Source: an uncultured Alphaproteobacteria bacterium (GTDB taxonomy: Bacteria > Pseudomonadota > Alphaproteobacteria > RF32 > CAG-239). Taken from it: a stretch of DNA of 64,000 nucleotides. The stretch lies in the NCBI GenBank assembly GCA_934254925.1, contig CAKQMD010000001.1:13266-77265 (forward strand). The letters run 5' to 3'. The position numbers and the translations under genes were made by a program. Positions 13,260 through 59,435 of the stretch are shown here, piece by piece. The notes below the pieces were generated by a model. The model saw only the letters and a program-made list of their open reading frames with translations, did no database searches and was not told where the DNA came from. Every line of letters begins with the position of its first letter. Positions within the stretch are counted from its first letter, which is position 1.

Positions 13260-13316
13260 GGATTATCTTTTATAGGCTGGGTATAAACGCTCAGCCTTAA
13301 TTTATTTTAGATATTT

Positions 13317-37785: not shown

Positions 37786-38468
37786 TTAATCCTCTCGTCG
37801 GAACTGATTTCACCATCCACAATTTTGATAATTCGGCCGGAATAACGCGCGACGTCTTCCTCATGCGTCACCAGAATAATCGTCCGCCCCATTTCCCGGT
37901 TAAGCCGCGTAAACAGTTCCATAATTTCTACGCTCATTTTGCTGTCCAAATTTCCGGTCGGTTCGTCGGCAAAAATGATCGGAGCATTGTTGACGATGGC
38001 CCGGGCAATGGCCACGCGCTGCTGTTGACCGCCGGAAAGTTGGTTGGGCTGATGATCCATCCTTTTTTCCAACCCTACCTGCTTAAGAGCGTCGATTGCC
38101 CGTTGACGGCGGGAAGCTTCGGGAACGCCGGCATAGACCATCGGCAGTTCGACGTTTTCAATGGCCGACGTTCGCGACAAGAGGTTAAAACCTTGGAAAA
38201 CAAAGCCGATTTTCTGATTACGGATTTCTGCCAACCGATCTACGGACAGGTTTTCCACCTTTTGGCCGTCGAGCCAATAATGGCCGGAAGTAGGCTTGTC
38301 CAAACAGCCGAGAATATTCATTAAAGTCGACTTTCCCGAGCCGGAAGGCCCCATGATCGCAACAAACTCCCCCTCCTCTATTTCCAAAGAAATACGTTTG
38401 AGAATATTGAGGGTAAAACCTTCAAGCGGATAACTCTTACAAATGTTTTGCAGCTTGATCAACGGCAT
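37782..38468 (-). CDS. ABC transporter ATP-binding protein (MacB/LolD-type)
   Basis: Walker A GPSGSGKST, signature LSGGQQQRVAIARA, Walker B IIFADEPTGNLD. Start overlaps the permease gene (ATGA). Confidence 0.85.
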   Translation of the reverse strand: MPLIKLQNICKSYPLEGFTLNILKRISLEIEEGEFVAIMGPSGSGKSTLMNILGCLDKPTSGHYWLDGQKVENLSVDRLAEIRNQKIGFVFQGFNLLSRTSAIENVELPMVYAGVPEASRRQRAIDALKQVGLEKRMDHQPNQLSGGQQQRVAIARAIVNNAPIIFADEPTGNLDSKMSVEIMELFTRLNREMGRTIILVTHEEDVARYSGRIIKIVDGEISSDERIK

Positions 38469-39628
38469 TAATGCGGCATCCTCATACGCATGGCCCGAGC
38501 GGCGTCATCATTACCGTTTTTCTCGACAATAACTTCTTCTCCGGCTTTCAAATCCTGACTTTTCACCTCGGTAACGTCTTCATTGCTTACCCCGGTGGTC
38601 ACGCTCACTCTTTCGGGCACGCCGCGGCGCAAAACCCAAATTCCCTTGTCTTTGTATCTTTTAGCCGTGCCGCCGTTCTCGTCTTCCATATAAAAGCGCA
38701 AAGCCTTGTTGGGCACCAATAGGACATCTTGCTTTTCGGCGGTAATGATCTCGACATTGGCGGTCATGCCCGGTTTGAGCTTCAGATCCTTATTGTCGAT
38801 CTCAATAATAACCTCATAAGTAACGACATTGGAAACCGTTACCGGATTGTTGCGCACCTGAGTCACAATGCCGTAAAAAATCTCGTCGGGAAAGCTGTCG
38901 ACGCTGAATTCGACGGTCTGTCCGTCTTTGACCTTGGCAATATCGGCTTCGACAATCGAGGCCTCAATCTGCATTTTGGTCAAATCCTCCGCCACATTAA
39001 ACAATGTCGGCGTCTGAAAACTTGCCGCCACGGTTTGTCCGACTTCCACTTCTTTGGAAACAACAATGCCGTCTACCGGCGAAACGATCTTGGTATAACG
39101 CAAATCGATTTCTGCCGTCTGCAAAGCCGCTTCCGCTTGTTTGACCTGGGCTTCCTGCAAAGCCAGCTGCACCACGGCGTTGTCATATTCGCGCTGCGCG
39201 GCTTCCAAATCCTTGTCCGTCGAATATTGCGATTTGTTCAGTTTGGAAATACGGGCCAAATTCTTCTTATAATAAACAATATCGTTTTTGCTGACGTCAA
39301 CCTGCGCCTTGGCAATATCCAGAGCTGCCCGGCGCTGTGCCACCGTCGCCTCGAACAGGGAGGGATCAATCTGTGCCAACAATTGGCCTTTTTTTACTTC
39401 GGAATTATAATCCACAAAAATCTCGGCAATCGTTCCGGAGACCTGGGTTCCTATGTTGACCGTCGAAATCGGATTGATGATGCCGGAAGCGGTGATCTTT
39501 TCGGTAATGTCCCCTTGCTTAAGCTTATTGGTCACATAATCGGGCAGTTTCGGCCCTTCCCGATTATACCAAATGCCGATTCCCGCGATAACCGCGACAA
39601 TTCCCGCCATTTTCAAATATTTGTTCAT
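38468..39628 (-). CDS. HlyD/MacA-family periplasmic adaptor subunit
   Basis: 386 aa. N-terminal TM anchor, long coiled-coil hairpin, beta-barrel and membrane-proximal domains typical of membrane fusion proteins. Confidence 0.8.
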   Translation of the reverse strand: MNKYLKMAGIVAVIAGIGIWYNREGPKLPDYVTNKLKQGDITEKITASGIINPISTVNIGTQVSGTIAEIFVDYNSEVKKGQLLAQIDPSLFEATVAQRRAALDIAKAQVDVSKNDIVYYKKNLARISKLNKSQYSTDKDLEAAQREYDNAVVQLALQEAQVKQAEAALQTAEIDLRYTKIVSPVDGIVVSKEVEVGQTVAASFQTPTLFNVAEDLTKMQIEASIVEADIAKVKDGQTVEFSVDSFPDEIFYGIVTQVRNNPVTVSNVVTYEVIIEIDNKDLKLKPGMTANVEIITAEKQDVLLVPNKALRFYMEDENGGTAKRYKDKGIWVLRRGVPERVSVTTGVSNEDVTEVKSQDLKAGEEVIVEKNGNDDAARAMRMRMPH

Positions 39629-40936: not shown

Positions 40937-43900
40937 TCACTGCAGGCTTTTGAGCAACGGACGTCCCTTTTTGACCGCACGTTTTTTTATTTTGCGCTTG
41001 AGGATCTGTTCTTCATCAAACAGTTCTCCGATAATTGCAAACATCATCGGCACAAACAAAGTCGCGACGAACGTGGACGCGATCATGCCGCCGACCATGC
41101 CGGTTCCGATGGCATGACGACTGCCGGCACCGGCGCCGCTACTGACGACCAGAGGCAAAATGCCGAAAGTAAACGCCAGAGAAGTCATCACAATCGGGCG
41201 GAAGCGCAGTTTGGCCGCCGACAGGGCCGCCTCAGCATAGTTCTTTCCGCTTTGCACCTCCATCACGGCAAATTCCACAATCAGAATGGCATTTTTAGCG
41301 GCCAAACCAATCAGCGTTACCAGACCGATTTGGAAATAAAGATCATTTTCCAACCCGCGCAGCCAGGTGGCCAGCAAAGCACCGAAAACGGCAAACGGCA
41401 CAGACAAAATCACCACAAACGGCAGCGACCATTTTTCATACTGCGCCGAAAGGATCAGAAAGATCATGATCAGACCAAAGATAAAAGCCTGGGTAGAGGC
41501 GCCGCCGGTCAGTTTTTCCTGATAAGCCGAACCGACCCAAGACAAGTCATAATCCGGTCCGAGGACTTGCGCAGCTGTTTCTTCCATAGCGGCAATCGCT
41601 TGTCCCGAGCTGTATCCCGGCGCCGGATCTCCCGTCACCTTCGCCGCGGGGAAAATGTTAAAGCGATTGATCAGCTCCGGCCCGATGATCCGTTTGACGT
41701 CGATTAACGTAGACAAGGGAATCAACTTGCCATCGTTGGATTTGGCATAAACATAGCGCAAATCATCCGGCGTGCGGCGGAAACGCGCCTCCGACTGAAC
41801 CGTTACGCGGAAGTTGCGGCCAAAATAAGTAAAGTCGTTGACATACAGGCTGCCGAAGGTGGCCTGCATCACCGCATAGATTTGGTTGATCGGCACATTA
41901 AGCGCCCGCGCCTTCTCGCGGTCCAGCTCAATCGAATATTGCGGCGTGCTGACGGAAAAAGTTGTCCGCACGTTGCTCAGAGCCGGATTTTTATTGGCCG
42001 CATTCACCAATTCCTGCGTTTTTTCCATCAGCTGCGCCGAGGTATGGCCGCCCTTGTTCTGAACATAACCTTCAAATCCTCCGGTCATGCTCAGTCCCAT
42101 AATCGGCGGCATGTTAAAGGCATAAGAAAGTCCTTCGGCCTGGCGCATGCCCATTCCGGTCATCAAAGCGGCGATTTCATCGGCACTTTGGCCTTTTCCC
42201 TCGCGTTTGGCCCAATCTTCGAGCACCACGAAGCTGATTCCCGAATAGGTGTTTTGCGAGGAGGACAAGATGTCATAACCGTTAATGGTAATCATGTCCT
42301 TGACCAGCGGATTTTCCTTGACCTGTGCCGTCAATTTATCGGTATATTTGGTGGTTCGGCCCAAAGAGGAAGCCGCCGGCATCGAATGCGCCATCAGCAG
42401 GGTTCCCTGGTCTTCCATCGGCACCAAACCGCCGGGAATGACCTTGAACAGGCCCAAGATCAGCACGATCATGCCGGCAAAGGCCAGAAGCGTCAGCTTG
42501 CGGAAATGCAAACAAAAGCGCACGCCGGCCAAATACCAGTCGGTCAGTTTTTCAAAAAACCGGTTAAACAATCTAAAGAACAGAGCCGGTTCACGGTGGG
42601 TCGGTTTCAAGAGAATGGCGCACAGCGCCGGAGTCAAAGTCAGTGCCACAAAGGCTGAAATAAGCACCGAAATAGCGATGGTTACGGCAAACTGCTTATA
42701 CATCATTCCGGTCATGCCGCCCAAAAAGGCAATCGGCAAAAAGACGGAAGACAAAACCAAGGCCACCGCGACCACCGGTCCGGAGACCTCCTTCATCGCC
42801 TTGAAGCAGGCTTCTTTGACCGAAAGCTTTTCTTCGCTTATCAGACGTTCGACGTTCTCAATCACGATAATGGCGTCGTCCACCACGATACCGATGGCCA
42901 GAATCAGACCAAACAGGGTCAACAGGTTGATGGAAAAGCCTAACAGATACATGCCGGCAAAAGCACCGATGATGGAAACCGGCACCGCCAAAATCGGAAT
43001 AATCGTGGCACGCCAGTTTTGCAAGAACAGATAAACCACCAAGACCACCAAAAACACGGCTTCAAAAAAGGTATGAATCACTTCTTCAATCGAGATGTTC
43101 ACAAAAATCGTCGTATCATAAGGGATGGAATAAGAGATGCCTTCGGGAAACTTTTTCGACAGCTCCGCCATTTTGGCCTTTACCGCCGCCGAGGTTTCCA
43201 AGGCATTGGCGCCGGACTGCAGGTAAACGGCAAAAGCCACGGCTTTTTCGTTGTTCTGCTGAGAAGAAACGCTGTAATCCTGAGCACCGAGTTCTATTCG
43301 GGCCACGTCTTTCAGCCGCAGCATGGCGCCGCTGCTGTCGCTCTTGAGAATAATGTTGCCGAACTCCTCCTCGGAAGTCAGCCGCCCTTTGGTGTTTACG
43401 CTGTAAGTATAAGGCAAATATTCATCCATCGGTTCCTGCCCGAAGCGGCCGGCCGCAAACTGGGAATTCTGTTCCTGAATGGCCGTGGTCACGTCCAGCG
43501 GCGTCAGGTTATAATCCGCCAGCTTGTCAGGGCTGAGCCAGATGCGCATCGAATAGTCCTGACTGGCGAATAAAGACGCTGATCCGACGCCCTTAATACG
43601 TTTGATTTCGTCCAAAACGTTCAGCAGCGCATAGTTGGAAACATAAACCGTGTCATATTTGTCAGAATCGGACTTCATGGTCACCACCTGCAAAATGGCG
43701 TTGGACTTTTGCTCCACGGTTACGCCTTGTTTGGTGACTTCGCTCGGCAACTTGGCCGTTGCGGCCTGAACTTTGTTGTTAACGTCAATCGTTGCCTGAT
43801 CGGGATCGGTACCGATCTCAAAAACCACGCCGATGGTCAGATAACCGCTGGAAGTGGCGGTGGAATACATGTAAATCATGTTGTTGACACCGTTGAGCTC

Positions 43901-44104
43901 CTGTTCGATCGGCGCCGCCACAGTATCGGCCAAGACTTCGGCCGTTGCGCCCGGATAAACCGCGGAGATCTGAATTTCCGGCGGCACGATGTTCGGATAT
44001 TGCTCAATCGGCAGCACCTTCATGGAGACCAAACCGGCCAAGACGATAATCAATGACAAGACCGTTGCAAAAATCGGCCTTTTAATAAAGAACTCTGAGA
44101 ACAT
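40937..44104 (-). CDS. RND multidrug efflux transporter, AcrB/HAE1 family
   Basis: 1055 aa. 12-TM / two-large-periplasmic-loop architecture with the conserved AcrB N-terminus (MFSEFFIKRPIFATVLSLIIVLAG...). Confidence 0.95.
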   Translation of the reverse strand: MFSEFFIKRPIFATVLSLIIVLAGLVSMKVLPIEQYPNIVPPEIQISAVYPGATAEVLADTVAAPIEQELNGVNNMIYMYSTATSSGYLTIGVVFEIGTDPDQATIDVNNKVQAATAKLPSEVTKQGVTVEQKSNAILQVVTMKSDSDKYDTVYVSNYALLNVLDEIKRIKGVGSASLFASQDYSMRIWLSPDKLADYNLTPLDVTTAIQEQNSQFAAGRFGQEPMDEYLPYTYSVNTKGRLTSEEEFGNIILKSDSSGAMLRLKDVARIELGAQDYSVSSQQNNEKAVAFAVYLQSGANALETSAAVKAKMAELSKKFPEGISYSIPYDTTIFVNISIEEVIHTFFEAVFLVVLVVYLFLQNWRATIIPILAVPVSIIGAFAGMYLLGFSINLLTLFGLILAIGIVVDDAIIVIENVERLISEEKLSVKEACFKAMKEVSGPVVAVALVLSSVFLPIAFLGGMTGMMYKQFAVTIAISVLISAFVALTLTPALCAILLKPTHREPALFFRLFNRFFEKLTDWYLAGVRFCLHFRKLTLLAFAGMIVLILGLFKVIPGGLVPMEDQGTLLMAHSMPAASSLGRTTKYTDKLTAQVKENPLVKDMITINGYDILSSSQNTYSGISFVVLEDWAKREGKGQSADEIAALMTGMGMRQAEGLSYAFNMPPIMGLSMTGGFEGYVQNKGGHTSAQLMEKTQELVNAANKNPALSNVRTTFSVSTPQYSIELDREKARALNVPINQIYAVMQATFGSLYVNDFTYFGRNFRVTVQSEARFRRTPDDLRYVYAKSNDGKLIPLSTLIDVKRIIGPELINRFNIFPAAKVTGDPAPGYSSGQAIAAMEETAAQVLGPDYDLSWVGSAYQEKLTGGASTQAFIFGLIMIFLILSAQYEKWSLPFVVILSVPFAVFGALLATWLRGLENDLYFQIGLVTLIGLAAKNAILIVEFAVMEVQSGKNYAEAALSAAKLRFRPIVMTSLAFTFGILPLVVSSGAGAGSRHAIGTGMVGGMIASTFVATLFVPMMFAIIGELFDEEQILKRKIKKRAVKKGRPLLKSLQ

Positions 44105-44126
44105 CTCTCTTCCCTTTTCTTAAAAA

Positions 44127-45335
44127 TTATTCCGCCGGAGTTGTCACTTCCGCTGCGGCATTGTCAGCGGCGGGGTTTGTTTCTTCCAGTGTGGTCGTTT
44201 GGCGGTCGATTTCCTTTTCAACCGCTTTTACCGGCATTCCTGGACGCAGTTTCATCAGGCTGCTGACGGCAACCAGTTCGCCCGGCTGCAACCCTTGGTC
44301 GATAATCCATTCACCTTCCTGCGTGGTCAGGCCGATTTTTACCTGGCGAGATTCGATTTTGCCTTCTTCACCCACCACATAGACATAAGATCCGTCGGCT
44401 CCCTGCATGACGGCTTCCTGCGGCAGGACCACCGCGTCTTTGCGCACCAGACCTTCCAAAACCAAGCGCATAAACTGGCCGGGCATCAGTTTTCTTTCGG
44501 GATTGGGGAAAACGGCTCGCAGCTTGATTGTTCCGGTATTCTCGTCAATCGTCGGGTTAACGAAGTTGATCTCGCCTTCCCGCTCGTAGACTTTGCCGTT
44601 GCTGGACTTGATCTTGGCCTTGATGTCTTTTTTGTATTGCGGCTGGATGATCAGTCCCTGTTCAATCATGGCGCCGAGTTTGAACATATCCGAATCCGCC
44701 GCCGAGAAGACCACATAAATCGGATCCAATTGCGTAATCGTGGTCAGTTGACCGTTTGCCGCGATCAAACTGCCTTCGGACTGGGTTTCCATGCTGGTGA
44801 TGCCGCTGATCGGCGCCCGCACGGTGGTATAGTCCAAATTCAGCTGCGCGGCATCGACGTCAGCCTGAGCGGCCGCCAGATTGGCCTTCAAACCGTCATA
44901 ATTTGCCCGGGCTTCGTCACGGGCCTTTTCGCTGACGATGCGATCCTTAAACAGCTTTTCAATCCGTTTCCATTGGGTTTCTGCCGCTTTCAGCTGAGCT
45001 TCAACCTGCAGCAAACGGGCCTTAGCCTGGGAAAGAGCCACCTTGTAGGGTTCGGGGTCAATCTCAAACAGCACGCTGCCTTCCTCTACCGTGGAACCTT
45101 CGACATAGTTGCGTTTGAGCAAAATGCCGCCAACCCTGGCGCGAACCTCGGTTTCCTTTGAACCTTGAGCTCGTGCGGCAAACTCAAAAGACAACGGAAT
45201 ATTTTGCGCCTGAGTTTTGACGGCTACGACTTCCGGCACCTGCTGTGCGGCGGTTTGGGCGCCGTTTTCCTCTTTACAGGCCGTCATGGCAAGCAGTGCC
45301 GCCGTCAACATCATTGCTTTATTCTTAAAAAACAT
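44127..45335 (-). CDS. RND efflux periplasmic adaptor (AcrA/MexA family) lipoprotein
   Basis: Lipobox MTAC, RLLQVEAQL coiled coil, beta-barrel domain. Immediately upstream of the RND pump gene. Confidence 0.85.
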   Translation of the reverse strand: MFFKNKAMMLTAALLAMTACKEENGAQTAAQQVPEVVAVKTQAQNIPLSFEFAARAQGSKETEVRARVGGILLKRNYVEGSTVEEGSVLFEIDPEPYKVALSQAKARLLQVEAQLKAAETQWKRIEKLFKDRIVSEKARDEARANYDGLKANLAAAQADVDAAQLNLDYTTVRAPISGITSMETQSEGSLIAANGQLTTITQLDPIYVVFSAADSDMFKLGAMIEQGLIIQPQYKKDIKAKIKSSNGKVYEREGEINFVNPTIDENTGTIKLRAVFPNPERKLMPGQFMRLVLEGLVRKDAVVLPQEAVMQGADGSYVYVVGEEGKIESRQVKIGLTTQEGEWIIDQGLQPGELVAVSSLMKLRPGMPVKAVEKEIDRQTTTLEETNPAADNAAAEVTTPAE

Positions 45336-45559
45336 TTCTCTTTCCTTTGCAAAAAATAACGATTGTCTATCAGGTTACTATAAACGTAATAAAAAACAAT
45401 ATTTTTCATTCATAGCCGAAGGTTGTGGATATTTATATATGTATATTTGCATTCTTGAAAATCCATTCATGACGATTAGGTATTTAAGCAGCTGATGAAA
45501 ATGAGCAAACTATCCCTTTCATACAAAACAGATTTATTAATTTTACAAGGAGAATTAAG

Positions 45560-46144
45560 ATGACTGAAGGTGTACGTTTTCCGACTTTCGCATTCATTAC
45601 CGGCGGCGCCGGCCAGGCCGACGACGGTATTCCGCCGCAACCTTTTGAAACCTTCTGCTATGATTCCGCTTTGATGCAGGCAAAAATCGAAAACTTTAAC
45701 GTCGTTCCTTATACCTCGGTTCTGCCGAAGGAGCTTTACGGGAAAATTCTTCCCATTAACGACAAGATTGTCAGCCAGTTCAAACACGGCGCCGTTTTGG
45801 AAGTCATTATGGCCGGACACGGTGCCAGCCGCGACCAGCACAAGGCCATTGCAACCGGTTTGGGCGTCTGCTGGGGCAAGGATAAAAACGGTGAGCTGAT
45901 CGGCGGCTGGGCGGCAGAATACGTTGAGTTCTTCGACACCCAGATTGACGACGACATTGCCAAAGGCCATGCCGAAATGTGGCTTACCAAGTCTTTGAAC
46001 CACGAATTGTCGATCCGCGGCGTAGAAAAACACTCCGAATTCCAGATGTGGCACAACTACGTCAATATCACCCAACAGTTTGGTTACAGCTTGACTGCAA
46101 TGGGTTTCCTGAACTTTGAGCATGCAGCTCCGGCTCAGGCATAA
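45560..46144 (+). CDS. pyruvoyl-dependent arginine decarboxylase (AaxB-like)
   Basis: 194 aa. N-terminal [13 protein letters not shown] and a candidate Thr-Ser self-cleavage site in VVPYTSVLP. The size and neighbouring APC antiporter match the aaxB-aaxC arrangement. Confidence 0.65.
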
Positions 46145-46217
46145 TCTTTTCCGCCACCCTTGACGCAATCAAGGGTGGCGCATTGTTTTTTTAACTGATT
46201 TTTCAAGGAATAACCTC

Positions 46218-47705
46218 ATGGCAGAACATAAAACTTCTTCCGCGTCCGCTGCCGCAAAACCAACCGGTAATCCCAACGGTTTGGGCGTTTTGGCTCTGGC
46301 GGGCATTGTCGTCAGCTCCATGATCGGCGGCGGCATCTATTCCCTGCCGCAAAACATGGCGGCTGGAGCTTCCGCCGGCGCCGTGCTCCTGGCATGGATC
46401 ATCACCGGCATCGGCATTTATTTCATTGCCAACACTTTTCGCATCTTATCCACCGCCAAACCGGACCTAACCTCCGGAATTTACATGTATTCCCGCGCAG
46501 GCTTCGGTCCCTACATCGGCTTTACCATCGGCTGGTCTTACTGGCTGTGTCAGGTTTGCGGTAACGTCGGTTATGCCGTCATCACCATGGACGCCCTAAA
46601 CTATTTCTTTCCGCCATATTTCGCGGGCGGTAATAATTTAGCTTCCATCATCGGCGGCTCCATTATCATCTGGGGCTTTAACTTTTTGGTGTTAAAAGGC
46701 ATCAAACAAGCCACCATCGTCAACCTCATCGGCACCGTCGTCAAGATCGTACCGCTGGTACTGTTTATCCTCATTATGGCCTTTGCCTTCAGTGACAGCC
46801 GCTTTAGTTTCGACTTCTGGGGCGAAAACGTCGCCACCCGCATGAAACTCGGCGGTCTCGGCACGCAGATCAAGAGCACCATGCTGGTGACGCTTTGGGC
46901 TTTTATCGGCATTGAAGGCGCCGTGGTGATGTCTAACCGTGCCAAAACGCCTCATGACGTCGGCAAAGCAACAATTTTGGGCTTCATCGGCTGTTTGGCC
47001 ATTTATATTCTGTTGTCCCTGCTGCCTTATGGCTACATGTCTCAGGCCGAATTAGCCACCGTTCCCAATCCCTCCACGGCCGGAATCTTGGAAAAGTTGG
47101 TTGGTCCCTGGGGCGCCTGGCTGATGAACATCGGCTTGTTGGTTTCGGTTTTGACCAGCTGGCTGGCCTGGACCATGGTTACGGCCGAAGTGCCGCACGC
47201 CGCCGCCAAAAACGGAACTTTCCCCAAAGAGTTTGCCATTGAAAACAAATATGGCTCACCGGCGGTTTCTTTGTGGATCACCAGCGCCATGATGCAGATT
47301 TTCATTCTGCTGGTGTATTTTTCAAATAATGCCTGGAACACCATGCTCAGCATTACCGGCGTGATGGTTTTGCCGGCTTATTTCGCCTCCTGCGCTTATT
47401 TGTGGAAAATCTGCGAAGACGGTGAATATCCCGCCAATGCCTTGGTTAAAAGATCTGCGGCGCTGATTACCGGCATTCTCGGAGCGCTTTACGCCCTCTG
47501 GCTGATTTATGCCGCCGGCCTGAATTATCTTCTGATGGCCGTCGTCATTGTGGCATTGGGAATTCCGGTGTTTATCTGGGCACGTCGTCAGAATGCTCCC
47601 GGCGAAAAAGCCTTCACCAAAGGAGAATGCGCTTTTGCCGTCATTTTGGTGCTGTTGGCGTTGTGGGCGATTTTTGCCTTTGCCGAAGGCATTGTCAAAA
47701 TCTAA
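46218..47705 (+). CDS. APC-family amino-acid antiporter (arginine:agmatine exchanger-like)
   Basis: 495 aa. 12-13 TM helices. N-terminal [22 protein letters not shown] motif typical of APC/AdiC-like exchangers. Confidence 0.8.
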
Positions 47706-47723
47706 CCGCTTCGTTTAAACTTA

Positions 47724-47758
47724 AAAGCAGCAGTTTGGTCAAACTGCTGCTTTTTTTT
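47724..47758 (+). terminator. rho-independent terminator after the antiporter gene
   Basis: aaagcagcagtttggtcaaactgctgcttt hairpin plus tttttttt. Confidence 0.65.
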
Positions 47759-47762
47759 GAGC

Positions 47763-48146
47763 TTAAGCTCCGTCTTTTCCTTCGTCCAAACGGTGCAACG
47801 GCGTTTCACAGCCTTCCTCGTCGATGATTTGGAAATAAAAATTTTCTTTGATCCGAATGCCAAACGGCAGTTTTTGCAATTCGCCAAAAACAAAACGATT
47901 GACCAAAACCAGCACTTTTCCCCAACAATATCTGTCTTCCAACAAATCTAGAAGCTGCTCTTCGCTGATTGCGGCGGTTTGGCAATGAAAATCGTCGATC
48001 ATTTCGATCCGATGGCCGTATTTCCGGCGTATTTTTCGGTTCCAACACTCGGCACGGACGGCGGTAACCCGACTCCGCGCATCATACAAAATTTTTCTGA
48101 CATCGGGAACCGAAAGGGAACAATCCTTTATGGCTTTTGTTTCCAT
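47763..48146 (-). CDS. hypothetical protein
   Basis: 127-aa ORF, low GC. Separated from the phage-like operon by a strong hairpin. Confidence 0.35.
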   Translation of the reverse strand: METKAIKDCSLSVPDVRKILYDARSRVTAVRAECWNRKIRRKYGHRIEMIDDFHCQTAAISEEQLLDLLEDRYCWGKVLVLVNRFVFGELQKLPFGIRIKENFYFQIIDEEGCETPLHRLDEGKDGA

Positions 48147-48238
48147 AACTTTTATAAATTATAAGATTAATAATATTTCATTGTCGGCAAGATAACATAA
48201 AGCGCTTCAAGAATCAAGCCGACAAAAATGAAAAAAAA

Positions 48239-48277
48239 CTTCCCCCGGTTAATGCAAAAGACAATAACCGGGGGAAG
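48239..48277. terminator. strong bidirectional terminator hairpin at distal end of phage-like late operon
   Basis: cttcccccggtta-N13-taaccgggggaag (13-bp stem) flanked by aaaaaaaa and tttt. Confidence 0.6.
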
Positions 48278-48279
48278 TT

Positions 48280-48471
48280 TTAACGCGGGCATTTGAGTTT
48301 GATGTCCTGCCATTTGCGGATCACCGTTACCAAATCCGGCGGCAGTTCGGCGCCTTCTGCCAATACCATGGCAAAAGCCTTTAAAATTGCATCCAGCTGA
48401 TCGCCGACGGGCAGTTTCTTGGCATATTCCCGAGCACGCCGCTGTTTATATGTTAATCTCGGTCTGGGCAT
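48280..48471 (-). CDS. small hypothetical protein (phage-like module)
   Basis: 63-aa ORF at the distal end of the operon. Confidence 0.3.
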   Translation of the reverse strand: MPRPRLTYKQRRAREYAKKLPVGDQLDAILKAFAMVLAEGAELPPDLVTVIRKWQDIKLKCPR

Positions 48472-48483
48472 GATCTGTTCCTT

Positions 48484-48942
48484 TTACCTAACTTGCTTTT
48501 CACTGTTTATGGTATCCAAAGCGCCTGAAAAACCGCTGATAATCTGCTGATCTGCCTTAAATTTGGCTTTTTTCCTGAGATTATTGTTTTCCAGATAATT
48601 GGTCTTCATCATATGGTCCATATCATCATAGCCTTCTTTAATCAGACGGTTTTGTGCCGCCAGGGCCGAACCGCTGCCGACAATCCCCATGCCGCCGAAA
48701 GCAGCCCGACGCGACGCCAGTTGCTGATCCAACAGGTTATTGCGCTTCTTCATATTATAAGCCGTTTGGGCATTGTTCATGCTCATCTGCCGGCGTGCGG
48801 CCTTTTTGGTTTGGTTGGCCTTATAGAAGCTGTTAAACAGATCTATTCCCATGCCGGCTTGTTTTCCGGTAGCCATTCCCATAACTGTCGAACCTATACC
48901 TCCCATTTTATTTCTCCTTTCAATTTTTAATTTTAACTTCAC
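48484..48942 (-). CDS. phage-like hypothetical protein (Gly/Met/Asn-rich; possible gp13-like virion protein)
   Basis: 152 aa. Immediately downstream of the gp12-like gene, as gp13 is in T7. No motif. Confidence 0.4.
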   Translation of the reverse strand: MKLKLKIERRNKMGGIGSTVMGMATGKQAGMGIDLFNSFYKANQTKKAARRQMSMNNAQTAYNMKKRNNLLDQQLASRRAAFGGMGIVGSGSALAAQNRLIKEGYDDMDHMMKTNYLENNNLRKKAKFKADQQIISGFSGALDTINSEKQVR

Positions 48943-50827
48943 TCGTCGTCGCCAATAAGGTAAACGACGCCGGAATATCGCTGCGGATGCTCCATAGCGG
49001 TTTGTTCAGCTCCCGAACCCAGCCCAATGCATGCAGCTCAAGATCGCCGCTGTAATTGAGGGCCGGAGCATCGAGTATTTTGTCCCGATACAGACGTTTC
49101 ATCGGCACTTCAAAGTAACCGTTACCGATATCCAACCGCAAAGATTTGGTATCCAGAACGCGGAAAATCGCCCGAATGATTCGTGCAGCCTTCGGCGGAA
49201 ACGGTTTGGCAGCGTCAACCATAAAAGGAAGAGGCTCAACAATATGCTCATAAGGATAACCGATGATAATTTCTTTGACCGGATCGCTCAAAACCAAAGT
49301 TCCGTCAGTGATTTTGAAGTTTCCCAAAGTATAACCGTCGCCGATGACGGCCACGAGTTTGTCCTCCAAATAATCCAGTCCGGTCCAGGTATCTTTGGGG
49401 GTTTCCGAGGTAAACTTCTTTCCGCAGTCAACATAATAATCAGGGACAAGCTTCTCAATATAGTATGAACCGTCGCGTTCTACAAAAAAGTACATTTCAT
49501 CATTGACGACGGCAGCGGAAAGAAACTTGCCTTCGGTTTTCAGCACACTCCAGGCATTGACCTGTTCTGAGCGATAAGTCGTCAGACAGGCTGCCGTCCC
49601 GTCCCCACACAGAATATACAAAATGCATTCGTCCTGATGATAGATCATCTCCTGCGGATTATTGACAAGCTCCGGCGCCAAGAGAGACAGGTCTTTAGCC
49701 TGATAGGCCTGCTCAACGTCCGCAAACAAGAATTCGCGAAGCTGTCGACCGTTTTGCGACATAAACAGCGTCGCTCCGTCAACATTCGGCGGCGTCAACG
49801 ATCGCTTGTTATAGCTGCCGATATTGGTCTGGCGGTTCAATTTGAGGCTTTCAGGCGTCAGAGGTTCTCCGCTCACCATCCACTCGGCGCCGGTGGTAAA
49901 CACCAACAGGTGACGAGAAGAGACGACGTTCAAAATCGCATTGACCTGATCGGAGAGAATGGCGAAATCAATTGCCTCGTCATCCAGCCCGGTGCCAACA
50001 TCAAAGTTAAACAAATCTGACGATTTGGAAAGCCAAAGGTGGTTCGGCAGAGACTTTGATCCGCCGATCACCATGCGATCCTGATGGAAGGTAACCGAGG
50101 CAGGATAGCCGCGTTTGGGCGAAAACGCCGCTTCTTCCCAATCCGTCGTCGGCTCGTAGTCATCAAGAATGTGGCTGAGCGTCATCTGAATATTTTTCGC
50201 ATCAATAAAAGAATTGACCACTCCTTCTCCGTTTCTGAGACGGATGCGCGTACCAAGGTATGATTCGTCAAAAATCGGATTATCGGCGGTCAGAACAATC
50301 GTTCCGACATTGTTGCTGGGAGAGATGCGTTCCTTCTTTTTGAAAAAATTGTAATACGGGCACTGCGTATAGCCGTTGTCCGTATAAAAAGTCCACTCCT
50401 TGATGCTCCAAACGTCATTGTCCGTCCGGCTGATTTCACGCGGGGGAACGTCGGGATGAACGACCAAAAGCGTATCGGCACTTTGAGTCCAGTTGATCTT
50501 TTGGACCTGCTCCAACGTCCAAGGACTTTCCAGCGTGGTAATACATTCGTCGTCACGATAGACTTTTACTGTTTTTTCACCGAAATACAGCAGATAGACT
50601 TGTTCGGTATTAAACTCAAAAGAAATCAGGCGGCCATTGCCGGAGAGTTCGTCAACATATTTCAGTCCTTGTCGCCGTGAAACACCGCCCGTCGGATAAA
50701 TAATCACGTTTTGCAAAGTACGGGCGCCATTGGCATAGACGTTCAGATCCCCCCGGCCAAAGATTTTTGAAGAAACTTGACCGGAGGTAAAGTTTGTTTT
50801 TACCGAAATCGGGTTGTTGCTGCTCAT
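48920..50827 (-). CDS. tail tubular protein B-like (T7 gp12-like) nozzle protein
   Basis: 635-aa beta-rich protein directly downstream of the gp11-like gene. Start overlaps by 4 nt. Assignment rests on synteny and size. Confidence 0.45.
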   Translation of the reverse strand: MSSNNPISVKTNFTSGQVSSKIFGRGDLNVYANGARTLQNVIIYPTGGVSRRQGLKYVDELSGNGRLISFEFNTEQVYLLYFGEKTVKVYRDDECITTLESPWTLEQVQKINWTQSADTLLVVHPDVPPREISRTDNDVWSIKEWTFYTDNGYTQCPYYNFFKKKERISPSNNVGTIVLTADNPIFDESYLGTRIRLRNGEGVVNSFIDAKNIQMTLSHILDDYEPTTDWEEAAFSPKRGYPASVTFHQDRMVIGGSKSLPNHLWLSKSSDLFNFDVGTGLDDEAIDFAILSDQVNAILNVVSSRHLLVFTTGAEWMVSGEPLTPESLKLNRQTNIGSYNKRSLTPPNVDGATLFMSQNGRQLREFLFADVEQAYQAKDLSLLAPELVNNPQEMIYHQDECILYILCGDGTAACLTTYRSEQVNAWSVLKTEGKFLSAAVVNDEMYFFVERDGSYYIEKLVPDYYVDCGKKFTSETPKDTWTGLDYLEDKLVAVIGDGYTLGNFKITDGTLVLSDPVKEIIIGYPYEHIVEPLPFMVDAAKPFPPKAARIIRAIFRVLDTKSLRLDIGNGYFEVPMKRLYRDKILDAPALNYSGDLELHALGWVRELNKPLWSIRSDIPASFTLLATTSEVKIKN

Positions 50828-51444
50828 TGTCTCGCCTCCACCAGGGTAAAGTCTTCAAACTTGCGCGGCGTGGCCTGCTGGGCATCAATCAAACGAGCCT
50901 GAGTGATGGCATCTTCCGCCAAACGCGACAGAAAATCCGCCCGCGTCGTGCTTTCGGTCAGAGGAATGCAGAACTCTGCGGCCAATCGTGCCATCAGTGC
51001 CTCAACGAAAAATGCGGGAAAAGTGTCTACATGCGGCCGAAAGATATAAGTGATGGTTACATGTTCGGCATTGGTATGCATTTTGTTTTCAAAAATGCGG
51101 TATTCCAGACCGCTGCCGCGTCCGGCATTGCCTGCCGAGATGATCCGCAAAAAATCATATGGCAGAGCATAAGCGTATTTGAAATCCGCCAAAGGCCTGC
51201 TTTCCAATCTGGCCAAAGTTTTTTGACCGACGGCAAAACTCCAGGGATAAGAAGAAAGCAACGCATCCCTAATCTGGGGATAGAGGTTCGCCGCCACTTC
51301 GGCTTCGGCCGTTCCGTCTTCAAAAGACGTCAGGGGCGAAGCGCCGATTTTGATTAAAGCGTTTGAACATAAATTCACATCTGTTATTGTCATTATTTTT
51401 CTCCATTTAAAAAGGATGGCGGCAACCGCCGGGGCTGCCGCCAT
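50824..51444 (-). CDS. tail tubular protein A-like (T7 gp11-like) adaptor/gatekeeper
   Basis: The N-terminus ALIKIGASPLTSFEDGTAEAEVAANLYPQIRDALLSSYPWSF aligns by eye with T7 gp11 [42 protein letters not shown]. 206 aa vs 196 aa. Confidence 0.6.
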   Translation of the reverse strand: MAAAPAVAAILFKWRKIMTITDVNLCSNALIKIGASPLTSFEDGTAEAEVAANLYPQIRDALLSSYPWSFAVGQKTLARLESRPLADFKYAYALPYDFLRIISAGNAGRGSGLEYRIFENKMHTNAEHVTITYIFRPHVDTFPAFFVEALMARLAAEFCIPLTESTTRADFLSRLAEDAITQARLIDAQQATPRKFEDFTLVEARQ

Positions 51445-51487
51445 ATCACTTTTGCTAATAGGTATTTAAAATTTATATTCGGGAAGG

Positions 51488-51754
51488 TTATTCAGTATCC
51501 GCAGCCGGACCTGCCACCTGGGAAACACTCACCGTACCTTCGGCATTGGCAGAAACTACCAAAATGGCCGTTTCCAACGTGCTGGAAGTGGAGGCGTTGA
51601 CCAAAATCATGTCACCGACACGGACAAAGGGCGCCGTCTCGTTGAAATATTTAGCGGTCTTGACCGTTTCCAAAGTATCGGTCGTTGAATAGTTCCACAG
51701 CGTGAAGCCGTTGGCATAGGCCAGAACACTGAAAGATTTGGTATCGTAAGACAT
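51488..51754 (-). CDS. hypothetical small protein between capsid and gp11-like genes
   Basis: 88-aa ORF, Thr/Ser/Ala-rich. No motif. Confidence 0.3.
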   Translation of the reverse strand: MSYDTKSFSVLAYANGFTLWNYSTTDTLETVKTAKYFNETAPFVRVGDMILVNASTSSTLETAILVVSANAEGTVSVSQVAGPAADTE

Positions 51755-51785
51755 ATTCTTATCCTTTCATAATATAAATTAAAAA

Positions 51786-52625
51786 TTAAGCTTCTTTGCA
51801 TTTGATGCGGACGACGCCGTCTTCATCAATCAGGCAGGACCCCTGGCTCATCATGTTATTGATGAAGTGGGCGGCATGGTCGCCGTGCCAGGTGATGTCG
51901 GATTTGACGTCTTGTCCCGAGGCATGGCCGATGGCCGTCTTGTGGAAAAGGAAGCAGTCGCGGGCTGTGCCGTTGAGCGGCAAACCGGTGTGCATGATCC
52001 AGTTGATGCCCAACCAACGGCGGCTTTCCGTCCCTTTCAGGAAGGGCATGTTGTCGCCGGCATATTCCGAGCTTGAAAACTCGGGAATGCTCAGCAAGGC
52101 ATTCCATTGAAGCGGCCCGAGAATGGCAAAACGCTGGCCGTCATCAGGAACATTGTTGCCGTTCAGCTTGGCAAAGGCGTTCAAAATGGTAGCTTTGTCC
52201 AAAACCTTGGTTCCGTCACCGACATCGTTTTTGGCAGAGGCCGAGGCCAAGGCGCTGATGATCAATTCATCGGTCTTGCGGCCGAGGGCATAAGCGCCGG
52301 CATTGACGATAACCTGACGTTCGTCAATGCTCAACTTGATTTCGTCCAAAGCATCAACCCAATCGCCGGCATAGTAATCCTGCAATTCGCATTCGATCGG
52401 CGTGTGATCAATGCTCATCACCGGTACCAGGCCGTGACGGGCTTTGTTGGAGGCAACGCCTTTGCCTACCTTCTGAAAAACGGTCGAAGACCCTTTGACG
52501 TTGTTTTTGTAACGAACACAGTTCTTCAGTTTAGAACCGGTCTGCTGATAAGACAGGTGAACGTCCGCCTGAAATTGTTTGACAAAAGAATCGCTTACTT
52601 GAATAGACATATTTTTATTCTCCAT
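51786..52625 (-). CDS. major capsid protein, T7 gp10-like
   Basis: 279 aa. Positioned after the scaffold gene. Segmental similarity to T7 gp10A by eye (IDERQVIVNAGAYALGRKTDELIISALAS vs DVRSEYTSQLGESLAMAADGAVLAEIAGL; NNVPDDGQRF vs KNYVPAADRVF). Confidence 0.5.
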   Translation of the reverse strand: MENKNMSIQVSDSFVKQFQADVHLSYQQTGSKLKNCVRYKNNVKGSSTVFQKVGKGVASNKARHGLVPVMSIDHTPIECELQDYYAGDWVDALDEIKLSIDERQVIVNAGAYALGRKTDELIISALASASAKNDVGDGTKVLDKATILNAFAKLNGNNVPDDGQRFAILGPLQWNALLSIPEFSSSEYAGDNMPFLKGTESRRWLGINWIMHTGLPLNGTARDCFLFHKTAIGHASGQDVKSDITWHGDHAAHFINNMMSQGSCLIDEDGVVRIKCKEA

Positions 52626-52651
52626 TTAAAGTTTTGAGTTAAAATTTTTTA

Positions 52652-53341
52652 TTATTTATCCGGGTAAAGGCTTTGGAAGCCTCTGGTAATTTTGTTAACG
52701 TAGGCTTTATCGTGATCGCGCCAATAACGGGGATCTTCCATCATTTTGCGCAGATTCTCTTCGGTCAGTCCGCCTTCGATCGAGCCTTCGCGGGAAAGTC
52801 CCGGTTCGTTGGAAGACATCATTTTATAAAGGGTGATAACGCCTTCTGCAGTGGTGGCCAGAGCGTCATAAATATCAGAGTTGATATTCTGACGGGCCCA
52901 GGTCGAGATCTGCCGGGAGACCTCGGTGAATTTATCCTGGCCGCCAAAATAGCGAGCCAGTTTCTCCATCTGCTTTTCGGCTTCAAAATCAACCGCCAAC
53001 TGGTCCAATACCGGAATAACCCGCTCGTTGGCCAGATCATAAACCAGCTGGGCCTGGTCATTGGTGAAGCCTTTTTCATAAAAACGCTTCAAGACTTCAT
53101 CATCTTTAGCCAGAAAAGGATGGTTGATATTCAGATCATACTGATCATAGCTGGCCGGCACCCGACGAAGATTTCCCTCCACCAGGTTTTCGTCCCGGGA
53201 AGCCATGTAGTTGTAATCTTGAATCAATTCATCCAGTTTGACGCTGCCGGTTGCGGCATCCCAAAATTTTTCGGGAAGTCCCATGGGTTTGCCTGACGAA
53301 GCAGCGGCAAGCAACGAGTCCATTTTTCTGTTGTCGTTCAT
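52652..53341 (-). CDS. scaffolding protein, T7 gp9-like
   Basis: Acidic 229-aa protein between the portal and capsid genes. The C-terminus LRKMMEDPRYWRDHDKAYVNKI resembles the T7 gp9 C-terminus MIKAMSDPRYRTDANYRRQVEQKVI. Confidence 0.5.
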   Translation of the reverse strand: MNDNRKMDSLLAAASSGKPMGLPEKFWDAATGSVKLDELIQDYNYMASRDENLVEGNLRRVPASYDQYDLNINHPFLAKDDEVLKRFYEKGFTNDQAQLVYDLANERVIPVLDQLAVDFEAEKQMEKLARYFGGQDKFTEVSRQISTWARQNINSDIYDALATTAEGVITLYKMMSSNEPGLSREGSIEGGLTEENLRKMMEDPRYWRDHDKAYVNKITRGFQSLYPDK

Positions 53342-53355
53342 TTATTTCTTTCCTT

Positions 53356-53583
53356 TCATTCAATATCCGGATTCCGGAGCGTTATGATTTTGCTTACTAA
53401 ATGCCGCTGTCCTTCCAGGTGACGTAATTCATCCGCCGAACAATCCGGCCCGAGGTAACGCTCGAGAGTCATTCTTTTTAAAAAAGAGAGGACAATTTTG
53501 CCCTCTCTGGTTGAAAAACACTTGACAAACGCCTGTCGAATCTCTTCTTCAGACATTTTCTTGGTGTCATATGTTTCCTGCAT
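53356..53583 (-). CDS. small hypothetical protein
   Basis: 75-aa ORF between the portal and scaffold genes. Overlaps the portal end. Confidence 0.3.
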   Translation of the reverse strand: MQETYDTKKMSEEEIRQAFVKCFSTREGKIVLSFLKRMTLERYLGPDCSADELRHLEGQRHLVSKIITLRNPDIE

Positions 53584-55165
53584 TGAGCGCCTCCTCTTCC
53601 GTCAACGCTTGCGGCGTAAAGCCGGCCGCAGCGTCTTCCGGAACAACCGGAAGCGTTTCAACAATCAGGTTGGACGGCACGTTTAATGTGCGTCCCAGCC
53701 ATTTGGCGGTTTCAAAAGCATTGACCGCCGCCAAGGCTTCGCCGCCGAAAGAAGCCAGCTGGCTTACCCATTCGACGACATTGCCGACGTCTTTGCGCGA
53801 TTGCAAAAGCGCCAGCGGAGATTTGTACTGCAGATCCACCACTTTGCCGTCAAGGTCAAAGTTTAAGACATCACCGCGCCGCCGCAGGATGAAGAATGCC
53901 CTTTTCAGCAAGGGAGTCAGCAGTTCCGTCTGCAGGCGTCCGAAAGTTGCCCCCAAAAGGCGCGCCATCTCGGACGAACGTTCCAAAACCTCAGTCGCCG
54001 TCATTGAGGGAACGGCAACCTGGGCCAGACGGTCAGCCAGCAAGGCATGATTGATGCGCGCCCGCAAATCCTCCAAAACCAGCTGCGAAATATCAAATTT
54101 TCCCGGCGCTTCCAGCGGCGTCAGTCCTTTTGAACCAACGGCCTTGGGAATAATGGCCCCGGGTACGAGCTTGATGTTTGACGGATTCAATACGCCGTCG
54201 TCATCCGCCTGCCAAATGCCGGTGACGGCAATCGAGGCGTTTTTCAAAATCAGCTCAACGACTTTGTTGGCGGTTTTGATGTCCGGCAGGGCCTTCATCA
54301 CCGGTGAGCGTCCGTAAACTTCTCCCGGCGCCTTGAGCCAGCGGAAGTTGATAAACGGCGAGGTTTCAAAAATGCCCTCACGCAAAACGACATGGCTGTC
54401 GGTACCGGTGTTTTCATCCCAGGCAAATGCCGTGTATTCATAGCCGCAGGTGCCGCAAATGCCGTTTTGGGGAATGACCGCCTCAATGACCTTGACACGG
54501 TAATCGCTGTCGTCATGGTAGCGTTCTTGCCATTCCGAAGGAATTGCCGCTTCAGGAAAGCGGACTTGCAGTTCGTCAACGGAAGCTGAAAAACTGCGAA
54601 AAGTAGTGTCGATTTTTCCCGTTCCGCTTTCCTCCAGGGCGATTTCCCTTAAAGGAACGGCATAAAAACGAAAAGCCGAAGCTTCCCCCAAAGGCGCCTC
54701 TTCAAACATCAGACAAGCCGTTCCCGCCGTAACCAGATCCAAGTAACATTGGTGGATTTCCACAGCAAAATTGGAGTGCTCAAAGTTTTGTAACAAAACA
54801 TCGGCCGTATTTTCCAAAATCGGGCCGATTTGTTGCCTTTCCTCCGGACTGAGTTCAGGTCCGGCTTTCAGACCAAACCATTTGGCCCAGGCCGGCGTCA
54901 GTTCCGATAACAAGGAAGAAGCCAATTGGTCAACGGCATCGGCAGCAGTTCCGTCAAAAAGCTTCAGGTTTTTCTTGCCGCCATCATTTAAGACGGCGAG
55001 GTTGCTTCCCGAACCTTCCCGCTGCGGCAGAGCATATTCGTAACATTCCTGCCAGTGGGAAACCCAATTTTGTTTACGCTGCTCGGCTTTTTGATAACGG
55101 CTGAGCAAGCGTTCAATCTTGTTTTCCATGTTATTCTCCCAACAAATTTTTACGATTGAGTCCAT
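53567..55165 (-). CDS. portal (head-tail connector) protein, podovirus/T7 gp8-like
   Basis: 532 aa vs 536 aa for T7 gp8. Collinear similarity by eye (ERLLSRYQKAEQRKQNWVSHWQECYEYALP vs ERLKNDRAPYETRAQNCAQYTIP; LDLVTAGTACLMF vs LKQLVVAGNVLLY). Its position before the scaffold and capsid genes is diagnostic. Confidence 0.6.
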   Translation of the reverse strand: MDSIVKICWENNMENKIERLLSRYQKAEQRKQNWVSHWQECYEYALPQREGSGSNLAVLNDGGKKNLKLFDGTAADAVDQLASSLLSELTPAWAKWFGLKAGPELSPEERQQIGPILENTADVLLQNFEHSNFAVEIHQCYLDLVTAGTACLMFEEAPLGEASAFRFYAVPLREIALEESGTGKIDTTFRSFSASVDELQVRFPEAAIPSEWQERYHDDSDYRVKVIEAVIPQNGICGTCGYEYTAFAWDENTGTDSHVVLREGIFETSPFINFRWLKAPGEVYGRSPVMKALPDIKTANKVVELILKNASIAVTGIWQADDDGVLNPSNIKLVPGAIIPKAVGSKGLTPLEAPGKFDISQLVLEDLRARINHALLADRLAQVAVPSMTATEVLERSSEMARLLGATFGRLQTELLTPLLKRAFFILRRRGDVLNFDLDGKVVDLQYKSPLALLQSRKDVGNVVEWVSQLASFGGEALAAVNAFETAKWLGRTLNVPSNLIVETLPVVPEDAAAGFTPQALTEEEALNAGNI

Positions 55166-55331
55166 CTCCGCTGTTGGTCGGCTGCAAAACGCCTTTATAG
55201 GACGTCTTAATGGTGCTTTCCATGCCGCGACGCCGGCGTTCCATTGCCTTTTTGCGTTCTTCTTCCTCGGTGTCGATTACCGGCTCCGGAGCCGGCGCCT
55301 CGATTTTAGGCGCACTAAATATTCCTCCCAT
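55131..55331 (-). CDS. small hypothetical protein
   Basis: 66-aa ORF overlapping the portal start. Charged and Pro-rich. Confidence 0.2.
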   Translation of the reverse strand: MGGIFSAPKIEAPAPEPVIDTEEEERKKAMERRRRGMESTIKTSYKGVLQPTNSGDGLNRKNLLGE

Positions 55332-55354
55332 TTTCTTTTCCTTTCTTGTTTAGG

Positions 55355-55891
55355 TTATGACAATTTTTTGACGACCCGCGTCAACAGGCCGGCAGATTTT
55401 GTTTTTTTCGTCCTTTTTTCGGGGGTGCTTTTGACCACCGAAACGCCCAGCACTCCGAGGGCCAATCCCCAAAGCGAGGCCGTTTCCATCAAAGCCGAAA
55501 TGATTTCGGCCGCTTCGCCGCCGTCGACAATAGCCACATAGCAAACGGTCAATATGGTCAACAGCCACGCAAGAGCAACCGAATAACCGAAGGCCGGGCG
55601 CCAAAAACGCACGAACTTATCTTCAGCCAGAATTTCCTGTCGGAGATCACGGTTAATCTGTTCTCGAGCTTTGCGATCAAGTCCAAGGTCGATATTTCGG
55701 CCACGAACAAGGTGACGATCGGCTTCGGCAATTTGTTCGGGCGAAATTTCCTCCCGGACAATTTCTTTCCCAACGTCGTCCAAAGCCTGACCGGCTTTTT
55801 GAGCCGTTTCAGTGTTCAAACGCAGCAGCGAAAGGCTCAAAACCTTTATTAAAACAGGCAATCCGATTTTGCCCAGCAATCTGGTAATCAT
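55355..55891 (-). CDS. membrane protein, candidate holin
   Basis: 178 aa with two C-terminal TM helices (FGYSVALAWLLTILTVCYVAIV and LWGLALGVLGVSVV). Sits next to the lysin gene. Confidence 0.3.
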   Translation of the reverse strand: MITRLLGKIGLPVLIKVLSLSLLRLNTETAQKAGQALDDVGKEIVREEISPEQIAEADRHLVRGRNIDLGLDRKAREQINRDLRQEILAEDKFVRFWRPAFGYSVALAWLLTILTVCYVAIVDGGEAAEIISALMETASLWGLALGVLGVSVVKSTPEKRTKKTKSAGLLTRVVKKLS

Positions 55892-55895
55892 CGTT

Positions 55896-56605: not shown

Positions 56606-56617
56606 AAAAATCCTTTT

Positions 56618-58454: not shown

Positions 58455-58530
58455 CGACTTGTTCTTCAGGCGGTCAGTTTATTTTAGATACACTACTAGC
58501 AAGTGATGTTTTAGGGATAACAAAAAAAAA

Positions 58531-59301: not shown

Positions 59302-59340
59302 CTTAACAAATTATTAACAAAAATATTTATACAATAGGTT

Positions 59341-59376: not shown

Positions 59377-59435
59377 TTTTAATAGTTTATATTATAGTTC
59401 GTATCGGTAAAATTTAAGGATTTTGAGGAATTAGC

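Follow-up and report, generated by a model that had tools for sequence, protein, structure and literature searches.

Among the described systems for arginine:agmatine exchange, the closest to the locus considered here is AaxABC of Chlamydia pneumoniae (CPn1033-1031; Giles & Graham 2007 and Smith & Graham 2008, both cited after PMC2720952), which comprises an OprB-family porin (AaxA), a decarboxylase (AaxB), and an antiporter (AaxC). According to this source, C. pneumoniae AaxB is an arginine decarboxylase that undergoes self-cleavage at Ser53, with a pH optimum near 3.4, a KM of 5 mM, and a kcat of 6.9 per s. The window, by which the whole analyzed stretch of 64,000 nucleotides is meant, contains, as part of the chromosome of an uncultured, gut-associated alphaproteobacterium, an aaxB-like and an aaxC-like gene that very probably constitute an arginine:agmatine exchange system of the AaxBC type without a porin. 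The order of the two genes is that of C. pneumoniae, both proteins fall into the same clades as their chlamydial counterparts, and the decarboxylase agrees with the C. pneumoniae enzyme in its length and its Thr52-Ser53 cleavage site. Differences concern the host, which is a gut bacterium and not an obligate intracellular pathogen, and the conserved neighbor, which is a divergently transcribed RND efflux pump where Chlamydia has aro genes. The window spacer between the two genes has 73 nt and contains a hairpin, whereas that of Chlamydia has 9-10 nt and none; the tight operon arrangement is not found in the window.

The AdiA/AdiC pair of Escherichia coli follows the same predicted logic, that is, arginine in, agmatine out, and one proton used. 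Among the homologues of the window antiporter, only AdiC has a solved structure (E 4e-34); AdiA is a pyridoxal phosphate-dependent enzyme unrelated to the window decarboxylase. The pyruvoyl-dependent PdaD of Methanocaldococcus jannaschii (PDB 1MT1, 1N13, and 1N2M) has, to our knowledge, no partner antiporter. It shares the PF01862 family and the catalytic residues with the window decarboxylase, although it is distant enough to be missed by a single-sequence search and consists of 165 amino acids versus 194. In archaea, PdaD serves polyamine and agmatidine biosynthesis (PMC8503589). The ArcD antiporters of arginine deiminase operons belong to the same TIGR00905 subfamily as the window antiporter, which is placed in a separate clade and lacks arcABC neighbors.

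A close counterpart from the same habitat is the locus of the gut elusimicrobium Candidatus Avelusimicrobium faecicola (L091), whose AaxB and AaxC are approximately 77% and 65% identical to the window proteins. There the OprB porin gene has been retained, and the spacer measures 27 nt and forms no hairpin; the window, by contrast, has a hairpin and no porin gene. The order OprB-aaxB-aaxC, with spacers of 9-27 nt and without a hairpin, is common to Chlamydia, to L091, and to a further locus, L092. The protein P0263 of L092 is labelled Victivallaceae, yet the order of genes on its contig (aro genes, OprB, aaxB, aaxC, DAO, Ldh, PGI) is that of Chlamydia felis; an error in binning or a relationship of the organism to Chlamydia could explain this.

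The decarboxylase and the antiporter compared with their relatives

A scan of species-representative genomes, with one genome per species, yielded 501 bacterial relatives of the decarboxylase, which are spread over Alphaproteobacteria, Elusimicrobia, Fusobacteria, and Chlamydiae. The best 80 of these, with decarboxylases 84-97% identical to that of the window, are referred to as the related loci; together with the window they make up the 81 loci compared below. All 80 stem from metagenome-assembled genomes of uncultured gut Alphaproteobacteria or Proteobacteria, obtained from human gut catalogues, deer, chicken, and other animals. The window antiporter is identical to a protein on the NCBI contig CAYBRH010000011.1 of assembly GCA_964311575.1, a contig that the window matches. 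Chlamydial sequences were retrieved by a bait search of a protein database and subsequent reading of the matched cluster, which includes the AaxB proteins of C. pneumoniae and C. trachomatis D, and the comparisons rest on P0241, P0492, and P0484; an inexact sequence of C. pneumoniae AaxB (92% identity to the C. felis cluster representative) served as bait only. The sequence of M. jannaschii PdaD was checked against PDB 1N2M.

The two open reading frames, the gap between them, and the candidate Thr-Ser autoprocessing site VVPYTSVLP are present as given in a preliminary description of the window, which had proposed an aaxB/aaxC-like pair. Since the motif occupies residues 48-56, its Thr-Ser pair corresponds to Thr52-Ser53. 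The decarboxylase matches PF01862 (PvlArgDC) with 83 bits against a cut-off of 22.7 (E 2.8e-23) and is, over its full length, 72% identical to AaxB of C. pneumoniae and 71% identical to AaxB of C. felis. In a neighbor-joining tree (100 bootstraps), an AaxB-type clade recovered in 100 of 100 replicates unites it with sequences from Chlamydia, Elusimicrobia, Cetobacterium, and other Alphaproteobacteria, and PdaD lies far off; the identification as AaxB-like is borne out by both the identities and the clade.

In the alignments to AaxB and PdaD, which the preliminary description had suggested as a check, the cleavage serine and the active-site residues are conserved. Ser53 is invariant in three alignments (A1, A3, and A4) and matches Ser53 of both M. 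jannaschii PdaD and AaxB. Asp35, Asn47, Ser53, and Glu120 align with Asp35, Asn47, Ser53, and Glu109 of the M. jannaschii enzyme in a profile-profile comparison, in a 47-sequence MAFFT alignment with bridging sequences, and in a profile search of the PDB. In alignment A4, which extends down to 26-36% identity, only ten positions are invariant, Asn47, Ser53, and Glu120 being three of them, and Asp35 is nearly so. Asn47 and Asp35 (M. jannaschii numbering) are residues that we take to belong to the set involved in cleavage, catalysis, and substrate binding; for Glu109, a role in this set is described (PMC2720952). The broad A4 profile found the M. jannaschii PvlArgDC as its sole match in the PDB (E 9.9e-11), while PDB searches with the single decarboxylase sequence or a narrow profile retrieved nothing relevant. 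Cleavage is predicted to yield a beta chain of residues 1-52 (45560-45715) and an alpha chain, at the N-terminus of which Ser53 (45716-45718) would be converted into the pyruvoyl group.

The window decarboxylase also retains Gly115, as does C. pneumoniae AaxB, where the enzyme of C. trachomatis D has an arginine (ELIRGWAAEY). The Gly115Arg exchange blocks cleavage and renders the C. trachomatis D enzyme inactive (PMC2720952). The window gene is intact and is the most conserved one of its neighborhood, with a median identity of 91% versus 78% for the RND pump and 62% for the membrane-fusion protein, which argues for strong purifying selection; the possibility of a pseudogene was rejected on these grounds. 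Separate from the short enzymes, three proteins of 387-479 amino acids (P0347, P0348, and P0354) were noted in which a PvlArgDC domain, with 43-46% identity to the window decarboxylase, forms the C-terminal part behind long N-terminal extensions.

The antiporter matches TIGR00905 with 571 bits (cut-off 409) and AA_permease_2 with 197 bits, and it is 64% and 63% identical to AaxC of C. pneumoniae and C. felis, respectively. Its identity to AdiC is approximately 29% in an alignment with 388 ungapped columns. Residues Y74, Y93, N101, W202, I205, E208, W293, and Y365, which serve gating and binding in AdiC, are conserved in it. That the permease might instead be an ArcD-type arginine:ornithine or a histidine:histamine antiporter, which would leave no arginine/agmatine cycle, is suggested by the next-best NCBIfam models, TIGR03810 for ArcD (519.7, or roundly 520 bits) and NF040512 for histam_anti_2 (473 bits). 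Both scores are below the respective equivalog cut-offs of 591 and 725, as is that for AdiC (153 versus 574 bits), and the true AaxC of C. felis gives the same pattern of scores. The identity to plasmid genes annotated as ArcD amounts to 45-49%, against 64% to AaxC; two of these genes were inspected and both lie in arc operons. In a tree rooted on AdiC (200 bootstraps), the window antiporter and AaxC are monophyletic in 200 of 200 replicates, to the exclusion of ArcD, the antiporter of Lichenicola, and the antiporters paired with genes of the phosphatidylserine decarboxylase family. A grouping with non-arginine APC transporters, named in the preliminary description as the outcome that would speak against an AaxC-like protein, was not seen. 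No arcA, arcB, arcC, or hdc genes are located nearby. ArcD and HdcP identities were both rejected, and the permease is very improbably of either type.

Antiporters of the same subfamily, approximately 50% identical to that of the window, are encoded on plasmids of Photobacterium (L086, 1795-4657) and Enterobacter (L089, 3965-6765), where each has as its partner a gene annotated as phosphatidylserine decarboxylase family protein. Here, too, an exchanger occurs together with a pyruvoyl-type enzyme.

Predicted pathway and the points to be weighed against it

Arginine/agmatine exchange coupled to proton-consuming decarboxylation is the best-supported mechanism for the gene pair, as in AaxBC and, by analogy, in AdiAC. 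The antiporter would take up L-arginine and release agmatine. The decarboxylase proenzyme would cut itself between Thr52 and Ser53, leaving a pyruvoyl group on the alpha chain, and the mature enzyme would convert arginine into agmatine and CO2 with the consumption of one cytoplasmic proton per turnover. Export of agmatine, which is the more positively charged compound, would remove protons and add to the membrane potential. The outcome would be acid tolerance and, possibly, energy conservation during passage through the gut or stomach. Expression probably starts within the AT-rich region that separates the pair from the divergent RND pump genes, at a conserved promoter common to both sides, and the intercistronic hairpin would probably terminate or stabilize part of the transcripts, leading to an excess of decarboxylase over antiporter.

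Several points have to be set against this assignment. The decarboxylase scores 32.4 and 30.7 bits with the archaeal PdaD equivalog models TIGR00286 and NF009064, for which the cut-offs are 107 and 207, and is therefore not classified as a PdaD of the archaeal type; because C. felis AaxB scores equally low (32.8 and 30.7 bits), these models do not cover the AaxB type. AlphaFold models of the decarboxylase were poor, with a predicted local distance difference test score (pLDDT) of 56 from 16 sequences and of 44 from 59 sequences, all of which were at least 66% identical to the query, and gave no structural confirmation. A search for an aaxA-like porin, proposed in the preliminary description, found none in the 64-kb window by tblastn with four AaxA/OprB queries (E < 0.01) and none beside the pair in the 80 related loci; OprB-like sequences were limited to C-terminal fragments approximately 10 kb upstream in L019 and L038. 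The strong hairpin between the genes could mean that aaxB and aaxC are not co-expressed. For Chlamydia itself the role of aax is debated, with acid resistance, depletion of arginine against host nitric oxide, and agmatine production under discussion (PMC2720952).

The remaining point concerns the use of AaxB-type enzymes elsewhere. Genes of this type, approximately 70-77% identical, directly precede those for agmatine deiminase and N-carbamoylputrescine amidase (aguA/aguB) in Cetobacterium (L090) and on a plasmid of Lichenicola cladoniae (L085, NZ_CP053710.1). In the latter case the order is antiporter, decarboxylase, aguB, aguA, beside a gene for an outer-membrane barrel and an IS5 transposase. 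Judging from this linkage, the AaxB-type clade is also used for putrescine synthesis, and the window decarboxylase might accordingly act mainly in polyamine formation, with the permease being a general importer of basic amino acids. For the present lineage this is improbable. Neither aguA nor aguB occurs in the window, nor at a distance of up to 10 kb at any of the 80 related loci, which argues against a biosynthetic role; moreover, the permease gene is adjacent in all 80, and its product groups with the characterized exchanger AaxC. A porin-less exchange system of the AaxBC type is, thus, preferred.

The locus represents no new mechanism, as both protein families, and also the combination of enzyme and antiporter, are already known and annotated, and its practical value is modest. 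Minor features specific to the lineage are that no porin gene adjoins the pair, that a hairpin lies within it, and that the divergent RND neighbor is conserved. Its significance would lie in the acid tolerance of uncultured gut bacteria, in gut agmatine production, and in arginine consumption.

Residence of the gene pair in the lineage

The position of the pair between an RND pump and a phage-like block, as given in the preliminary description, is correct; its insertion there and the horizontal origin deduced from this placement are not supported. In each of the 80 related loci, as in the window, aaxB is directly followed by aaxC. Of these 80, 51 have the same divergently transcribed RND pump upstream of aaxB, and 52 have the fusion-protein gene there. 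Gene co-divergence was assessed by Mantel tests on pairwise distance matrices, the identity of each gene to the window across the loci having been uninformative. The correlation between AaxC and the pump (r = 0.60) or the fusion protein (r = 0.71) was as high as that between pump and fusion protein (r = 0.72; p 0.001 in all cases). A comparison of composition with the core genes, which had been proposed as a test of foreign origin, placed aaxB and aaxC inside the range of the core genes of the window with respect to GC content (0.52-0.53), GC content at third codon positions (GC3, 0.63-0.65), and codon likelihoods, and neither repeats nor a tRNA gene or an integrase gene flank the pair. Ten phage genes were tested and none was present in any of the 80 related loci, for which reason the phage block is regarded as the variable or inserted element. 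In one related locus, L054, a 6-kb interval with housekeeping genes separates aaxC from the YhdP-like flank known from the window. From these data the pair is a long-resident, ordinary part of the chromosome of this lineage and not a recent insertion.

A mobile cassette set only recently between the RND pump and the phage block could be invoked from three observations. AaxB-type proteins are 71-77% identical across phyla, with alphaproteobacterial sequences in more than one branch of the tree; one homologue resides on the 354-kb Lichenicola plasmid; and horizontal acquisition of aaxABC by Chlamydiaceae has been reported (PMC2720952). Conserved synteny, co-divergence with the pump and the fusion protein, core-like composition without flanking mobility signatures, and the absence of the phage genes from every relative contradict this idea, which was rejected and is hardly credible. 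The high identity across phyla and the multiple alphaproteobacterial branches suggest, instead, that the AaxB type was likely transferred between phyla in the past.

The occurrence of 501 relatives in the species-representative scan makes the AaxB type common in bacteria, contrary to the statement in the preliminary description that such systems are, outside the Chlamydiae, mainly archaeal. Pairs resembling aaxB/aaxC have been reported before in gut bacteria (PMC8465708), and short pyruvoyl-dependent arginine decarboxylases were noted in gut surveys (PMC12484125). A phagosomal lifestyle, considered at the outset, finds no counterpart in the data either, the relatives being gut genomes and nothing pointing to intracellular life. 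The chlamydial Aax system is, hence, one branch of a bacterial, mostly host-associated family, of which a whole lineage of uncultured gut Alphaproteobacteria stably maintains a variant without the porin on its chromosome. The horizontal origin that has been reported for aaxABC of Chlamydiaceae is also to be seen in this light.

Putative control elements and flanking DNA

The coordinates of the pair, its candidate control elements, and its immediate neighbors are compiled in Table 1. The region upstream of aaxB is as AT-rich as had been described, with a GC content of 28% versus 48% for the window, and the distance between the fusion-protein gene and aaxB is 188-314 bp in 51 of the 52 related loci that have the former. 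A bipartite motif in this region is conserved across species. In its strict form, ATTAGNTA[TA] together with TTGAAA at fixed spacing (TTGATT once), it occurs in 28 of 80 upstream regions from the window and related loci; both blocks are visible, at a fixed position, in the consensus of the upstream-region alignment. The scan for sigma-70 consensus promoters did not call it. The motif, TTGAAA-N14-ATTAGNTATAA, may function as the promoter of the pair. Directly 3' of it, at positions 45489-45508, lies a short inverted repeat, CAGCTGAT-N4-ATGAGC, which contains CAGCTG and has variants in many of the related loci; possible roles are those of an operator or of a stem-loop at the 5' end of the transcript. 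An Rfam search over 45200-47900 found no riboswitch or leader, returning only two sub-threshold chance matches.

Table 1. Positions of the aaxB-aaxC pair, its putative control elements, and adjacent genes in the window
Feature	Positions	Strand	Basis
aaxB-like gene, 194-aa pyruvoyl-dependent arginine decarboxylase proenzyme	45560-46144	+	open reading frame, PF01862, identity to AaxB
aaxC-like gene, 495-aa basic amino acid/polyamine antiporter of the APC superfamily, predicted arginine/agmatine exchange	46218-47705	+	TIGR00905, identity to AaxC
Spacer between aaxB and aaxC, 73 bp	46145-46217		
AT-rich intergenic region between the fusion-protein/RND genes and aaxB, presumed divergent promoter region	45336-45559	.	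composition
Promoter-like bipartite motif TTGAAA-N14-ATTAGGTATTTA, 73 nt 5' of the aaxB ATG	45455-45486	+	cross-species conservation
Shine-Dalgarno sequence AAGGAGA, 6 nt 5' of the aaxB ATG	45547-45553	+	consensus of the related-loci alignment
Intercistronic terminator-like element	46152-46192	+	fold and pattern scan
Shine-Dalgarno-like AAGGA, 8 nt 5' of the aaxC ATG	46205-46209	+	sequence
Terminator between aaxC and the convergent phage open reading frame 47763-48146	47723-47758	.	sequence, fold
RND efflux pump (40937-44104) and membrane-fusion protein (44127-45335), divergent from aaxB; neighbors outside the system	40937-45335	-	Pfam ACR_tran, HlyD_D23

The intercistronic element, which was not mentioned in the preliminary description, was listed by the pattern scan. 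It consists of a hairpin with a 12-bp GC-rich stem and a 5-nt loop (46152-46180), followed by CATTG and a run of seven T (46186-46192), and has a folding free energy of -22.6 kcal/mol (z -5.4). Spacer hairpins of -10 kcal/mol or below are present in 68 of the 81 loci (median -18.7 kcal/mol), compared with 6% of shuffled spacers; the sequences of their stems vary from locus to locus, and a T-rich tail follows in 43 of the 68. Since approximately 37 nt separate the hairpin from the start of aaxC, read-through of a partial terminator or stabilization of the 3' end of the aaxB mRNA would be likelier than a separate aaxC promoter.

The strong terminator that had been described downstream of aaxC is confirmed by folding, the simple pattern scan not having listed it. 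Its 14-bp stem (47723-47754) is followed by a T-run to 47758, the free energy is -19.4 kcal/mol (z -3.7), and none of 200 shuffled sequences was as stable. As the stem is flanked by an A-run and a T-run, the terminator probably acts in both directions.

A more far-reaching scheme would see AaxBC rebuilt in this lineage as a regulatory unit of its own, in which the porin is gone, the hairpin, conserved in structure and not in sequence, serves as a tunable attenuator that sets or switches the decarboxylase/antiporter ratio, and the conserved promoter together with the inverted repeat, in the intergenic region shared with the RND pump, co-regulates responses to acid and bile stress. Bacteria of this abundant, uncultured kind would also be a notable luminal source of agmatine, and such gut lineages or the Elusimicrobia would form the donor pool of chlamydial aaxABC. 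This scheme is considered rather unlikely.

The downstream flank of the pair encodes phage tail, major head, portal, lysis, and large terminase families, while the remainder of the window is core chromosome, with genes for topoisomerase I, tRNA synthetases, ClpB, enolase, serine hydroxymethyltransferase (SHMT), and a YhdP-like protein. The phage-like genes form a podovirus-like block (47763-60056) of structural and lysis genes only, namely nozzle, tail tubular, major head, portal, holin, endolysin, and large terminase genes. It ends with a gene for a CI/LexA-like repressor (59436-60056), and no integrase or replication genes were seen in it. None of the 80 related loci contains the block, and L054 has housekeeping genes in its place; either a prophage remnant or a misassembly of the contig could account for it.

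A stretch at 10000-13500, with a GC content of 0.30-0.39 versus 0.48 for the window, starts directly after a tRNA-Thr gene (10487-10561) and looks like a genomic island at a tRNA gene. Upstream of the RND pump, the window carries a MacB/ABC/HlyD efflux trio (36556-39628). In five related loci (L018, L035, L036, L040, and L048) this trio is located 2-5 kb downstream of aaxC, and from its differing position it is inferred that the locus has been rearranged within the lineage.

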